From NCBI RefSeq assembly GCF_055900595.2, contig NZ_CM148325.1: a stretch of DNA of 64,000 nt, one strand, 5' to 3'. The notes under the pieces are model-generated. The model had not been told where the DNA came from, ran no database searches, and worked only from the letters and a program-made list of their open reading frames with translations. This document shows positions 6,928 to 10,888 of this stretch, in pieces. The stretch's first letter is position 1, and each line of letters starts with the position of its first letter. The position numbers and the translations under genes were made by a program.

Positions 6928-7674
6928 ATGGAACAAGCGCATACCCAGCTGATTGCCCAACTGAACGAACGTATTTTAGCGGCGGATAACACGCCGCTTT
7001 ATATTAAGTTTGCCGAAACGGTGAAAAATGCCGTGCGCAGCGGGGTGCTGGAACATGGCAATATTTTACCCGGCGAGCGCGATTTAAGTCAGTTAACCGG
7101 CGTTTCGCGTATTACGGTGCGCAAGGCGATGCAGGCGCTGGAAGAAGAGGGCGTGGTGACACGTTCGCGCGGCTACGGCACGCAGATTAATAACATCTTT
7201 GAATACTCGTTAAAAGAAGCGCGAGGATTTTCTCAGCAGGTGGTGTTGCGCGGGAAAAAGCCCGATACGCTATGGGTTAACAAGCGAGTGGTTAAATGCC
7301 CTGAAGAGGTGGCGCAGCAATTGGCGGTCGAAGCGGGTAGTGATGTCTTTTTGCTTAAGCGTATTCGCTATGTTGATGAAGAAGCGGTCTCTATTGAGGA
7401 GTCGTGGGTTCCGGCGCATTTAATTCATGATGTTGATGCCATCGGAATCTCTCTTTATGACTACTTCCGCAGTCAGCATATTTTTCCAAAGCGTACCCGT
7501 TCCCGCGTTAGCGCCCGGATGCCGGATGCCGAGTTTCAGTCACATATTCAATTAGATAGTAAAATACCGGTGCTGGTGATCAAGCAAGTGGCGCTTGACC
7601 AACAGCAACGGCCTATTGAGTACAGCATCAGCCACTGTCGCAGTGATCTATACGTTTTTGTGTGTGAGGAGTAG
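6928..7674 (+). CDS. yegW: GntR/HutC-family transcriptional regulator
   Basis: 248-aa ORF with N-terminal wHTH region (LPGERDLSQLTGVSRITVRKAMQAL) and UTRA-like C-terminus. Confidence 0.88.
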   Translation: MEQAHTQLIAQLNERILAADNTPLYIKFAETVKNAVRSGVLEHGNILPGERDLSQLTGVSRITVRKAMQALEEEGVVTRSRGYGTQINNIFEYSLKEARGFSQQVVLRGKKPDTLWVNKRVVKCPEEVAQQLAVEAGSDVFLLKRIRYVDEEAVSIEESWVPAHLIHDVDAIGISLYDYFRSQHIFPKRTRSRVSARMPDAEFQSHIQLDSKIPVLVIKQVALDQQQRPIEYSISHCRSDLYVFVCEE

Positions 7675-8613
7675 TTCCTCGCGGGTTGGCGCGCAATCAC
7701 CGCCGCGATGCCCGACAACCCACGACGCCACTGCATTGCCCAGCAATACGGCATCCGCCAGTGGCAAACCAGAGGCCAGTCCAGCTAATACGCCACCTGC
7801 ATGACTGTCGCCCGCCCCAATGGTGTCTACAACTTGCGTTGGAAATGCCGGGATGCAGCCAGAAGCGTTATTGCTGAAATACCATGCGCCTTCTTTATCC
7901 AGACGAACGATCAACGGCGCGGCAAATTTCTCCTGCCATTGCTTGCCAAGTGTTGTTATCTCTGCTGATAAAGCAAAACGTTCGGCGGCAATCTCACCCT
8001 CCTGACGATTGAGTGACACTAAAGGTCGACAGGCCATGATTCGCGCCAGTAATGCATCCGGGATATCGCCAATACGTGGGCCAAAATCGATGAACGGCGT
8101 CACGTCTTGCAGACTCTCCAGCCATTCCACTAACAATTCACCGCAGGGCGAGGCCAGTTGATAACCGGAAAAATAGAGCAGGCTGCCAGGGGCAACGGTT
8201 AATCGCGCCAACCATTCGCGATTCCACTGATTTTCAACACCACTGAACGACATAAACGTGCGTTCACCATCAGGCTCAACCAGCGCCAGACACCAGCCGT
8301 TATCGCCTTCGGCGTTATCGATGAGGCTGATTAATCCTTCTTTCGCCATCCGGTTACGAATAATTTCCGCCCACACACCCTGGCCGAGCGGCAGGGCATT
8401 ACCCGCTTCGATACCGAGGCGCTTTAACGCCACGGCAATATTCAGTGCACAGCCGCCAACGTTAACGCTCTGCTGTTTCAGTTCGATATCGCACCCGCGC
8501 CAGGGCAGGGCATAAGCGTCGGCGATCACATCAATGACTGCCGCGCCAATCACCATAACCGGCTGACGCGTGGTTAATTCAGGCAGCAGCGTGTGTAATC
8601 GAGCGCCGCTCAT
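7648..8613 (-). CDS. yegV: PfkB/ribokinase-family sugar or nucleoside kinase
   Basis: 321-aa ORF with GAGDSHAGG motif; 3' end overlaps yegW 3' end by 27 bp. Confidence 0.88.
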   Translation of the reverse strand: MSGARLHTLLPELTTRQPVMVIGAAVIDVIADAYALPWRGCDIELKQQSVNVGGCALNIAVALKRLGIEAGNALPLGQGVWAEIIRNRMAKEGLISLIDNAEGDNGWCLALVEPDGERTFMSFSGVENQWNREWLARLTVAPGSLLYFSGYQLASPCGELLVEWLESLQDVTPFIDFGPRIGDIPDALLARIMACRPLVSLNRQEGEIAAERFALSAEITTLGKQWQEKFAAPLIVRLDKEGAWYFSNNASGCIPAFPTQVVDTIGAGDSHAGGVLAGLASGLPLADAVLLGNAVASWVVGHRGGDCAPTREELLLTHKNV

Positions 8614-9614
8614 GCCGCCTCCCGTTGTTGACGATACTTCGCCAGCGCCGTGGCGTAATGATTAAAATCAAGCTGATTTACCGCATCCAGTTCCGCCTTT
8701 AACGCAGGATCGATAGCGTTAACGCCATGCAACGCGCCGCAAATTGCCGTCGCCATAGCACCGATGGTGTCTGTGTCACCGCCAAGATTGGCGCACAGAA
8801 TGGCGCAACGGTTCGGGTCGGTTTGTGCTAGTTCAACCAGCGCAATGGCGCACGGAACGGACTCAATAGTACTGGTACCTGCCCCAACCACCTGATACAG
8901 CTGTTCGCTGGCGGATTCGGTGCCGTCGGCATTGCGCACAATTTTCAGCGCAATCTCCAGACGTGCTGCCAGTGAGGCGCTGAAGGTAGTGATGCGTTTT
9001 TGCTGTGCATGTCGCGCAATTGAAGGCAGTGAATCAACAATCGCTGACCAGCTTTCTCCGTCAATGGCACGAGAAATCGCCCATGCGATGACTACCGCGC
9101 CTGCCACCGCCAGATCGGATTTATGAGTCGGGCTGGACGCCAGCGCTACATCATCAATAAAGGAATCAACATCACGCGCCGGAAGCAAACAACCTAATGG
9201 CGAGACGCGCATCGCTGCGCCGTTGGTCACGCCATTGTTTTCCAGTTCAGCAACGGGTTTACCGTCGCGAATGGCGTTGAGAGCAATCTTCGAGGTCGGA
9301 CCTAGTACGTTTTTGTTAAAGGCGTCGAAACGCAGCGCCCAGTCGAGAATATTACGCCCAATCAGATCCGGATCGATCTCGCCTTCACGTTCCAGTAACG
9401 CATCCGCCAGACACAGCGCCATTGAGGTATCGTCGGTGAATTCGGCGCGGTTAAAATAACAGGCCGCGTTATTCTCCTTTGGGCCAGGCAAAAAACGGTC
9501 AATCCAGCCAAAGTGTGCTTTGACGCGGGAGCGTGGCCAAAGCTCGGACGGCATCCCCATCGCATCCCCTAACGCCTGCCCGTAAAGAGCACCGAGAATA
9601 CGTTCTGTTTTCAT
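8610..9614 (-). CDS. yegU: ADP-ribosylglycohydrolase-family protein
   Basis: 334-aa ORF; overlaps yegV and yegT by 4 nt (operon). Confidence 0.88.
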   Translation of the reverse strand: MKTERILGALYGQALGDAMGMPSELWPRSRVKAHFGWIDRFLPGPKENNAACYFNRAEFTDDTSMALCLADALLEREGEIDPDLIGRNILDWALRFDAFNKNVLGPTSKIALNAIRDGKPVAELENNGVTNGAAMRVSPLGCLLPARDVDSFIDDVALASSPTHKSDLAVAGAVVIAWAISRAIDGESWSAIVDSLPSIARHAQQKRITTFSASLAARLEIALKIVRNADGTESASEQLYQVVGAGTSTIESVPCAIALVELAQTDPNRCAILCANLGGDTDTIGAMATAICGALHGVNAIDPALKAELDAVNQLDFNHYATALAKYRQQREAA

Positions 9615-10888
9615 TTAACTTCCCCTTGTGTCAACGCAATATCGCGATCATCGACCTTGATAGCCGTAATTTCGTTGTCGGATTCGCGGAAAAAAATCAT
9701 GAACAGCACGGCGATAATGGCAATCATCACCGCACCGAAAGTCCACATCCCGGCCCAGTTGAAGGTCAGCCCGTTTACCGGTTCCTGATAAGCAAACATC
9801 TTCTCCATCATCACGCCACCAAGACGATAGCCGAGCAAACTGCCGAATCCCTGGCAGCAGAGCGTGATCAGCCCCTGCGCAGCGGTACGCATATGCACGG
9901 GGGCTTTTTTATCGACATAGATGTAAGCGGTAACGTAGTAAAAATCGTAACTTACTCCATGCAGCAAAATGCCGAGGAACAGTAACGCGTAGGTGAAATA
10001 TTCATCCGCACTACCGTAAATAAAGAAGCCATAGCGGATCGCAGCGGTGACCAGACCAAGTAATAATACCTTTTTGATACCAAAGCGTTTGGTAAAAAAC
10101 GGCAATGCCAGCATAAAGAAGATTTCAGAGAACTGGCCGAGCGTCATCCAGCCGGTGGCGTTTTTCATGCCGACTTCTGTCAGATAACCGTTGGCAAAGA
10201 TGTAATAGAACGCCAGTGGCATCGCAAACAGGAATGAACAGAAGAAAAAGACGAGGAAGTTTTTATCGCGCAGCAGGATCAGCGCATCCAGGCCGAGCAT
10301 GACTTTAATGTCCATTTTGCCGGTGCTTTTTGGCGGCGTGTCGGGCAGGAAAAACGCAAACACACCGAGCAGAGCAGAACTTCCGGCGGTAATCAGCAGC
10401 GGGATGTTAGTCGGAGAGATATCGGCATAACCCAGCATTTGCGGCAAAAATCCACATGCCAGACCGGAGGCAATCCAGCCGATAGTGCCCATCACACGAA
10501 TGCGTGGGAAATCACGCTCCACATCCGGCACGTTGGCAAAAGCGATACTGTTAGTCAGCGCAATGGTCGGCATATAGGTTAGCGAGTAGGCCAGCAGTAA
10601 CGGGAAGAACCCGGCAAAAGTGGTCTGTTGCGCAGCGAAATACATCAGCGCCGCACCAGCGAACATCAATACCGCCAGCACTTTCTGCGCCGAGAAAAAG
10701 CGGTCAGTGATGGAGCCAACCAGAATTGGCGACAGGATCGCCGCAATGGCGGTACAGGCATACGACCAGCCAATTTCTCCGGCACTAAAACCGCTTTTAC
10801 TTAACCACAACCACAATGGCACAAACCACGCGCCCCAGATAAACCATTCAACAAACATCATGAACGACAGCTTTGCTGTTGTTTTCAT
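9611..10888 (-). CDS. yegT: Nucleoside:H+ symporter-family MFS transporter
   Basis: 425-aa polytopic membrane protein; first gene of yegTUV. Confidence 0.88.
   Translation of the reverse strand: MKTTAKLSFMMFVEWFIWGAWFVPLWLWLSKSGFSAGEIGWSYACTAIAAILSPILVGSITDRFFSAQKVLAVLMFAGAALMYFAAQQTTFAGFFPLLLAYSLTYMPTIALTNSIAFANVPDVERDFPRIRVMGTIGWIASGLACGFLPQMLGYADISPTNIPLLITAGSSALLGVFAFFLPDTPPKSTGKMDIKVMLGLDALILLRDKNFLVFFFCSFLFAMPLAFYYIFANGYLTEVGMKNATGWMTLGQFSEIFFMLALPFFTKRFGIKKVLLLGLVTAAIRYGFFIYGSADEYFTYALLFLGILLHGVSYDFYYVTAYIYVDKKAPVHMRTAAQGLITLCCQGFGSLLGYRLGGVMMEKMFAYQEPVNGLTFNWAGMWTFGAVMIAIIAVLFMIFFRESDNEITAIKVDDRDIALTQGEVK

Follow-up and report, generated by a model that had tools for sequence, protein, structure and literature searches.

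What does the yegTUV operon of Escherichia coli do, and what does its repressor sense? The question is raised here by a window of 64,000 nucleotides (64 kb) from contig NZ_CM148325.1 of NCBI RefSeq assembly GCF_055900595.2, the whole stretch of DNA that was analysed, in which genes for a transporter (yegT), a hydrolase of the ADP-ribosylglycohydrolase (ARH) family (yegU) and a kinase (yegV) lie next to a regulator gene, yegW. The locus is already known and annotated in E. coli, and the regulator has recently been characterised as GgaR (Saito et al., 2024; PMC10819704). A reading made earlier from the letters of this DNA, referred to below as the sequence-only reading, had proposed uptake, N-glycosidic cleavage and phosphorylation of a ribosylated or nucleoside-like compound, and had stated that an established assignment of substrate and pathway in the literature would count against it. 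Searches by gene name and keyword found one for the regulator, but no established substrate or pathway for YegT, YegU or YegV, and no literature combining an ADP-ribosylglycohydrolase, a PfkB kinase and a nucleoside. The explanation that best accounts for the evidence given below is GgaR-repressed uptake, 5'-phosphorylation and ARH-type cleavage of a non-canonical riboside. We infer all of these pathway steps, and give the explanation an even chance of being right.

The gene yegW (= ggaR) occupies positions 6928-7674 on the plus strand (248 aa). The other three genes are on the minus strand: yegV at 7648-8613 (321 aa), yegU at 8610-9614 (334 aa) and yegT at 9611-10888 (425 aa). These coordinates, from the table of open reading frames (ORFs), agree exactly with the limits read earlier from the sequence, and Pfam supports all four of the family calls made then, namely a GntR/HutC regulator, a nucleoside permease of the major facilitator superfamily (MFS), an ADP-ribosylglycohydrolase and a PfkB kinase. 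The operon genes overlap, as had also been recognised. Since the 4-bp overlaps at yegT/yegU and yegU/yegV (ATGA in each case) are preceded by Shine-Dalgarno-like purine runs, both junctions indicate translational coupling within yegTUV. The orientation of the regulator was read wrongly: yegW had been called divergent from the operon, but yegW and yegV converge tail to tail, and the divergent neighbour is fbaB, which is separated from yegT by a 256-bp spacer (10889-11144) and has its true start at 11145. The earlier description contradicted itself on this point, making the genes "divergent" and yet giving them overlapping 3' ends.

Window bases 6500-11300 match 5424 of 5426 complete genomes of E. 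coli, the best at about 100% identity, and the annotation there runs yegX, yegW, yegV, yegU, yegT, fbaB. The window proteins differ from those of strain K-12 by 2 to 8 residues each. Of 80 Enterobacterales loci from different species, 78 have the genes in the order yegT-yegU-yegV with yegW converging on them, and 71 of these also have fbaB as the divergent neighbour of yegT. Median identities to the window proteins across the Enterobacterales loci are 91% for YegT, 88% for YegW, 82.5% for YegU and 72% for YegV. Horizontal acquisition of the yegW/yegTUV region was considered and rejected, as there is no GC anomaly.

YegW has a GntR domain (PF00392; 3.1e-16) and a UTRA domain (PF07702; 6.1e-36), that is, an N-terminal winged helix and a C-terminal effector domain of the chorismate-lyase fold, the layout of the HutC subfamily. 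In K-12 MG1655 its product is annotated as "DNA-binding transcriptional regulator GgaR", following the renaming by Saito et al. (2024). In that study chromatin immunoprecipitation on microarrays (ChIP-chip) gave a single peak, at fbaB/yegT, and GgaR was described as a single-target repressor of yegTUV on the evidence of ChIP-chip, electrophoretic mobility shift assay (EMSA), Northern blotting and quantitative PCR (PMC10819704). GgaR shifted a 190-bp probe upstream of yegT (probe-2) and, at higher protein, also probe-5, which covers yegT nt 571-869. A 3.3-kb yegTUV mRNA was found only in the ggaR mutant, and derepression was about 30-fold. GgaR stayed at about 20-30 molecules per cell whichever of the two media was used (PMC10819704). 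In vitro, 10-100 μM ADP-glucose released GgaR from DNA; ADP and glucose did not (PMC10819704). With the GGTAT array described below, these results on binding, repression and release give YegW what is expected of a GntR/HutC regulator, an operator beside the genes it controls and repression relieved by an effector.

The published model takes ADP-glucose as the signal. GgaR would sense it, and YegTUV would import, hydrolyse or phosphorylate ADP-glucose or its precursors, raising glycogen when glucose is plentiful. Besides the release assay, this model has in its favour that loss of ggaR increases glycogen 2-3-fold and results in poor growth on M9 glucose, that yegTUV mRNA is about 3-fold higher at 1% than at 0.25% glucose in a GgaR-dependent manner (PMC10819704), and that a yegV deletion appears in a list of 13 Keio mutants deficient in glycogen on ADP-glucose medium (KM-ADPG) (Almagro et al., 2018). 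However, a 3-fold induction by glucose, compared with 30-fold on deletion, points to a weak inducer in vivo, and only three ligands were tried in the release assay. No enzymatic link has been shown in the literature. Among the ten neighbourhoods of YegU relatives discussed below none contains glycogen genes; NCS1 or ECF transporters are found instead, and the geometry of ADP-glucose is unlike that of ARH substrates. ADP-glucose carries its ADP on C1 of glucose, whereas in ARH substrates the ADP is attached to C5 of a ribose and the bond that is cut is the one at C1 of that ribose. On balance the published model is rather unlikely.

The structure of the effector domain bears on the same question. 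The nearest solved homologue of YegW is NagR (YvoA) of Bacillus subtilis (E 4.8e-22). All of the phosphate ligands of NagR are kept in the alignment, T90 as Ser, R133, R135, S165, I166 as Leu, and Y167, and E145 and E222 are likewise kept. Because these phosphate-binding residues are conserved, a phosphorylated effector is suggested for YegW. The two-domain build is that of NagR and of DasR of Streptomyces, which are repressors of catabolic operons released by a phosphorylated intermediate of the pathway. There are differences: the effector of NagR/DasR is an amino-sugar phosphate, while the published effector of YegW is ADP-glucose, and NagR/DasR bind the palindromic dre site, while the candidate YegW operator consists of direct GGTAT repeats at 11-13 bp spacing and one inverted copy. 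Upstream of yegW itself there is no more than a hint of a promoter, TGaTATACT at 6888-6896 (plus strand), an extended -10-like element 32 nt from the ATG; it was read by eye and was not flagged by the promoter scan.

YegV is a PfkB kinase (PF00294; 1.3e-54). Its G53-G54, N202/E205 and D269 align to G41-G42, N187/E190 and D255 (GAGD) of ribokinase, and D28 and N58 align to ribokinase D16 and N46. In a preprint of 2025 it still figures as an uncharacterised sugar kinase. Over its full length YegV matches ribokinase best among the NCBIfam and PDB families, but the score against TIGR02152 is 80.1 bits, compared with a cutoff of 299.65, and at the positions of N14, K43 and E143 in the alignment with E. 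coli ribokinase YegV has V26, C55 and a gap or Ala. YegV is thus not a ribokinase proper, an equivalog of RbsK. In ribokinase N14, K43 and E143 contact the ring oxygen and the O1 side of free ribose, and the residues that YegV keeps are common to nucleoside kinases. YegV was compared with 13 other PfkB kinases linked to ARH genes. The N14 position is hydrophobic in 14 of 14, D16, GG, N46 and GAGD are kept in all 14, and NXXE is intact in 12. The K43 position is Cys or Ser in 10 of the 13 other kinases, and three C-terminal kinase domains of fusions align to a gap there.

These residues bear on the order of the two reactions. The sequence-only reading placed cleavage first. In that case YegU would split the riboside into base and free ribose, and YegV would be a dedicated ribokinase forming ribose 5-phosphate. 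The full-length ribokinase match speaks for this, and in Bacteroides ribose-utilisation loci ribokinases are combined with nucleoside-cleaving enzymes, including members of the ARH family. It has to contend with the low ribokinase score and the absence of N14, K43 and E143, the first two being substituted in other ARH-linked kinases as well. In addition, E. coli already encodes RbsK. Finally, the only phosphorylated product would be ribose 5-phosphate, which is a central metabolite and a poor specific signal for a repressor whose pocket retains phosphate ligands. This order is unlikely.

YegU belongs to Pfam ADP_ribosyl_GH (PF03747; 2e-66), and its nearest solved structure is MJ1187 (1T5J), followed by ARH3 and DraG. 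In 107 members of the subfamily the metal ligands T60-D61-D62 and D280/D282/T283 are conserved to 94% or more, and YegU also has E24, so that both the fold and the binuclear-metal ligands of the family are in place. The comparison of its active site with those of characterised hydrolases, which had been suggested earlier, gave a divided result. The ARH metal ligands are kept, but the adenine-binding residues of ARH3 are replaced: Asn and Val stand in the places of the stacking residues F143 and Y149, and S148 is lost to a deletion. YegU also scores below the equivalog cutoffs for DraG (79.3 vs 337.05 bits) and Tri1 (68.8 vs 490). Neither the equivalog similarity nor the adenine-binding residues of an ADP-ribosyl-protein hydrolase were found, and the literature searches by gene name and keyword found no published enzyme assay for YegU.

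YegU might nevertheless truly be a de-ADP-ribosylating enzyme, with a protein or free derivatives of ADP-ribose as substrate, and lie in the operon only incidentally. The strong Pfam match and the complete set of metal ligands are consistent with this, and ARH3, DraG and Tri1, with which YegU shares fold and binuclear-metal ligands, are the only characterised relatives found in PDB and NCBIfam. The scores and the loss of the ARH3 residues count against it. Unlike ARH3, DraG and Tri1, YegU is linked not to an ADP-ribosyltransferase or its target but to a kinase, usually with a transporter, and the linkage or fusion to PfkB in ten of ten neighbourhoods, mostly with a transporter, speaks for a small substrate that is taken up by the cell. 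A role in anti-phage defence was rejected, since none of the four proteins matched a known defence system in PADLOC. A de-ADP-ribosylating function is very improbable.

YegT is a permease of the family of nucleoside:H+ symporters (NHS) within the MFS (Nuc_H_symport, 3.5e-183; TIGR00889, 652.6 bits compared with a cutoff of 446.1), with the 12-transmembrane MFS fold and, at residues 311-315, the sequence GVSYD, the GXXXD protonation motif of transmembrane helix 10 with D315. The crystal structure (8ZOJ) has the NHS fold (Xiao et al., 2025; PMC11979927). Isothermal titration calorimetry gave no significant signal with uridine, adenosine, cytidine or guanosine, and F143, N228, Y318 and F322, through which NupG contacts uridine, are not conserved in YegT (PMC11979927). 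YegT thus shares family, fold and the D315 site with NupG and XapB, but is only about 27% identical to NupG, differs in the uridine-contacting residues, and showed no detectable binding of canonical nucleosides. The substrate could be a riboside that is α-linked or non-canonical in some other way, and the indifference of YegT to the four standard nucleosides would then be explained.

More distant bacteria provide a further line of evidence. YegU relatives were collected by a full-library HMMER search, which gave 235 representative clusters (50% identity clustering) at E ≤ 1e-30. Nine of ten long matches are fusions, PfkB-ARH or ARH-PfkB, so that both domain orders occur. The gene neighbourhoods of ten relatives, with about 31-57% identity to YegU, were then read. 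A PfkB kinase is adjacent or fused to the YegU relative in all ten, and a transporter lies beside the pair in nine: NCS1 (Transp_cyt_pur) in seven and ECF with its own S component in two, none being visible on one short contig. In the Enterobacterales an NHS transporter is used with the kinase-hydrolase pair. Because the transporter changes while the pair stays constant, there is good evidence from gene context for a small imported substrate of the nucleobase, nucleoside or vitamin type; NCS1 and ECF transporters are typical of such compounds. A GntR/UTRA regulator is present in two of the ten distant neighbourhoods. Comparison with these relatives supports, without proving it, the idea of repressor-controlled uptake and processing of a ribosylated or nucleoside-like compound that had been proposed earlier.

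The remaining neighbours are a mixed set, with PNP_UDP_1, amidohydrolase, isochorismatase, glyoxylate-pathway genes and TenA among them; no single substrate candidate emerged from gene context across the ten neighbourhoods. Two relatives, L014 (GC 77%) and L010, have neighbours that hint at a substrate. In one high-GC relative an NCS1 transporter gene and a gene of the isochorismatase/nicotinamidase family directly precede an ARH-PfkB fusion, and in another the pair is beside PNP_UDP_1, amidohydrolase and glyoxylate-pathway genes of the gcl/glxK type. Such neighbours might mean that the riboside is of a pyridine or purine-like kind.

The pathway that we favour has a known template. In pseudouridine catabolism psuT (yeiM) encodes a nucleoside transporter, psuK (yeiC) a PfkB nucleoside kinase, and psuG (yeiN) a glycosidase that releases ribose 5-phosphate from the nucleoside once this has been 5'-phosphorylated. 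By the same logic yegTUV, a translationally coupled operon under one dedicated HutC-type repressor, YegW/GgaR, would take up and break down, or salvage, a non-canonical ribosylated heterocycle, that is, an unusual nucleoside. YegT would import the riboside. YegV would then phosphorylate the 5'-OH of its ribose, in the manner of PfkB-family nucleoside kinases, and YegU, as a binuclear-metal hydrolase of the ARH fold, would cut the C1 bond of the ribose to give ribose 5-phosphate and the base. GgaR bound to its GGTAT array over the -10 region and start site would shut off the yegT promoter until it was released by the phosphorylated intermediate made by YegV, the presumed natural inducer; ADP-glucose would be a mimic, bearing phosphate and sugar, or a secondary signal. 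The likeness to psuKGT is one of logic. PsuG, of the Indigoidine_A family, cuts a C-glycosidic bond and YegU has the ARH fold, the transporter families differ, and YegV matches the pseudouridine kinase model at only E = 6e-4 (19 bits, compared with a cutoff of 540).

The kinase probably acts before the hydrolase, the reverse of the order first proposed. It is favoured because of the residue pattern of YegV, the phosphate pocket of YegW, and the metal site of YegU with its adenine-binding residues missing. Several points weigh against the pathway as a whole. The kinase-first order is an argument by analogy and not a result. The residue assignments come from pairwise or MAFFT alignments at 20-30% identity and from ligand residues of ribokinase and ARH3 as generally known. 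We know of no ARH-family enzyme with demonstrated cleavage of a nucleoside 5'-phosphate, and in the literature found a substrate has been identified for none of the three proteins YegT, YegU and YegV. The pathway also leaves unexplained both the rise in glycogen on loss of ggaR and the glycogen deficiency of the yegV deletion, and ADP-glucose, which is active in EMSA at 10-100 μM, may be the real inducer.

A further claim goes beyond E. coli: that YegU and YegV define a widespread riboside module, made up of a HutC regulator, an interchangeable NHS, NCS1 or ECF transporter, a PfkB kinase and an ARH hydrolase, in which the substrate cleaved by an ARH-fold enzyme is a small molecule, a riboside 5'-phosphate. 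This is a tentative proposal, with somewhat less than an even chance. If it is true, cleavage of a riboside 5'-phosphate would be a new activity for the ARH family, and ADP-glucose would then be only a surrogate ligand of GgaR.

The combination of kinase and ARH genes is also found in STM4065-4066-4067 of Salmonella enterica, which resembles yegTUV in gene content. We take STM4065 to be a permease, and the adjacent GntR regulator STM4068 presumably controls the operon. The two operons are not orthologous, and Salmonella has a separate yegTUVW locus (L038) as well. In this operon (Dougherty and Downs, 2003, as cited in PMC3161100) the PfkB kinase STM4066 has aminoimidazole riboside kinase activity, and STM4067 is putatively an ADP-ribosylglycohydrolase. 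The possibility that YegV is an orthologue of this Salmonella aminoimidazole riboside (AIRs) kinase was rejected on the match to 1TYY, the structure of STM4066, which is only 21 bits (E = 1e-3).

Where does GgaR bind? On the sense strand, the region upstream of yegT contains TTCACCGCAATGGTATTTAAAAGGTATTATTAAATGGTATTGTCATCGCGTACCTTAC. The candidate operator lies here, at 10917-10963 on the minus strand. It comprises three direct repeats of (A/T)GGTATT, R1 at 10962-10956, R2 at 10951-10945 and R3 at 10938-10932, and an inverted copy, GTACCTT, at 10923-10917. A consensus scan found one promoter-like site in the fbaB-yegT spacer, a sigma-70-like candidate at 10943-10972 on the minus strand (TTCACC, an 18-nt spacer, TATTAT), and the GGTAT array spans its spacer, its -10 hexamer and the predicted start site. 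This candidate promoter takes its position solely from its overlap with the conserved operator footprint, because the regional scans were not above chance (7 promoters compared with 5.5 expected, and 7 terminators compared with 7.5).

The operator footprint itself is sharp. In an alignment of the window with the upstream regions of 79 species-level Enterobacterales loci (80 sequences), the operator block stands out against variable flanks. R1-R2-R3 are complete in 75 of the 80, and 70 also have the inverted GTACC. The array falls within the 190-bp probe-2 to which GgaR binds. A 28-nt core, TGGTAT-N2-AAAAGGTATTATTA-N2-TGGT, has exactly two matches in the 64 kb, at 10935-10962 and at 10055-10082, where none is expected and none was found in 100 shuffles. 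The GGTAT-repeat array is thus a candidate for the GgaR operator, its sequence being proposed here and the repression having been published. The second copy of the core is inside yegT, at 10055-10082 on the minus strand (ORF nt 807-834, TGGTATCAAAAAGGTATTATTACTTGGT), and sits in probe-5, the weaker GgaR site. K-12 has this copy in the same place, differing by a single base (G instead of A within ATTATTA). The copy codes for a conserved stretch of protein, FGIKKVLLLG. In genera other than Escherichia and Citrobacter its synonymous sites have drifted, and it probably serves as an auxiliary site specific to the lineage.

Repeats of a similar kind occur in two distant relatives. One, with 66% GC, has three GGTAT copies upstream of a GntR-PfkB-ECF-ARH operon, and a locus with 57% YegU identity has two 11-bp tandem repeats, AACTGGAyTTA, between a divergent GntR gene and an ARH gene. 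Both cases hint at the same recognition logic. Just upstream of the -35 hexamer of yegT is a block, TGTTA-N6-TCAA(G/A), at 10975-10990 on the minus strand, with conserved columns and the pattern present in 68 of the 80 sequences. We liken it to the CRP consensus and regard it as a weak CRP-like candidate. Over 7.8 kb the window differs from the nearest genome at four positions, two of which, 10962 and 10997, lie in the fbaB-yegT spacer, and the first of these turns R1 from AGGTATT, the form in most species, into TGGTATT. The octamer ATGGTATT is in excess in the window, with 11 copies compared with 2.2 expected. This excess was discounted: the other copies examined are coding. A pair at 18524 and 18542 (18524-18549), 18 bp apart, is made up of GAT-GGT-ATT codons in a 259-aa ORF and looks coincidental.

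At the other end of the operon, the coding regions of yegW and yegV overlap tail to tail on opposite strands at 7648-7674. The sequence-only reading gave this overlap as 27 bp, which is exact, and suggested antisense interference, which is plausible. In 73 of the 78 Enterobacterales loci the length is again precisely 27 bp, including loci whose YegV is no more than 63-70% identical. Five loci (L024, L043, L089, L092 and L058) have lost the overlap. In four of these about 56-111 bp are inserted between the stop codons, and Yokenella (L058) has an apparent frameshift or extension of yegW. A survey with ExcludonFinder in 2025 listed yegV-yegW among 165 convergent excludons of MG1655, the transcripts overlapping in half or more of 58 RNA-seq sets from MG1655 (PMC12288877). 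The 27-bp coding overlap and this listing make the pair an excludon in the sense of overlapping opposite-strand transcripts.

It is a stronger statement that the overlap is an excludon device, in which the derepressed yegTUV transcript runs into yegW and lowers GgaR, giving positive feedback. The RNA-seq evidence and the constant length of the overlap would fit such a device, and so would a candidate yegTUV terminator that lies 35-85 nt inside yegW. Immediately after the yegV stop codon, antisense to the 3' coding part of yegW, there are two predicted hairpins (7567-7654, minus strand), of which the second (7567-7613) is followed by UAUUUUA. The minimum free energy of the 100 nt past the stop is -40.9 kcal/mol (z = -4.79). 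If the second hairpin were the terminator, the transcript would overlap yegW by about 110 nt, which roughly fits the size of the Northern band (3.3 kb). Citrobacter, Buttiauxella and Cedecea lack the U-tract, and the consensus scan did not call a terminator here. Pairing is kept in 92% of cells across 73 distinct sequences, compared with a mean of 91.6% in column-preserving shuffles, and covariation is weak (5 pairs, with 15 double-change cells compared with 8.5 expected). The second hairpin is thus a candidate terminator whose RNA structure is not separable from the coding constraint on yegW. The same constraint can by itself explain the constant 27 bp, because any insertion or deletion would frameshift the conserved C-terminal strand of YegW. 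The steady 20-30 molecules of GgaR per cell and the five species in which there is no overlap also tell against the device, and a regulatory function of this kind is doubtful.

The overlap has a bearing on mutant phenotypes. In the standard Keio design nothing but the final 21 nt of a deleted gene is kept. If that design holds here, the yegV deletion would remove the stop and last codon of yegW, and the yegW deletion (JW2088) would remove the stop and last codon of yegV. This clipping across the 27-bp overlap may complicate the published glycogen phenotypes.

Some features of the surroundings may be recorded. The gene yegX (glycoside hydrolase family 25; plus strand, 6058-6876) has an in-frame TAA at 6448-6450; in K-12 and in the nearest genome this codon is TAT (Tyr131). 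This single-base difference from the closest genome, NZ_CP098223, splits the gene into ORFs of 133 and 124 aa, and yegX is probably a pseudogene in this strain. A search of Rfam at E ≤ 1 within 6000-12200 found no structured RNA or riboswitch other than naRNA4/REP-like (repetitive extragenic palindromic) elements after fbaB. The naRNA4 match (CssrE, RF02564) at 12228-12356, downstream of fbaB, scores 60 bits against a gathering score of 59.5; there are weaker copies on both strands, and a cluster of REP-like repeats lies between fbaB and gatY.

The yegTUV operon is part of the core genome of E. coli, and it now has a named regulator and a transporter structure. The kinase-plus-hydrolase pair, which is often fused, recurs in distant bacteria together with other types of transporter. 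The operator, the residue patterns and the gene context presented here narrow the experiments to be done and do not themselves change what is known. Identification of the substrate would give the ARH fold a new chemistry and explain the link to glycogen, and it would reveal a nutrient or salvage route that is likely to matter in the gut.

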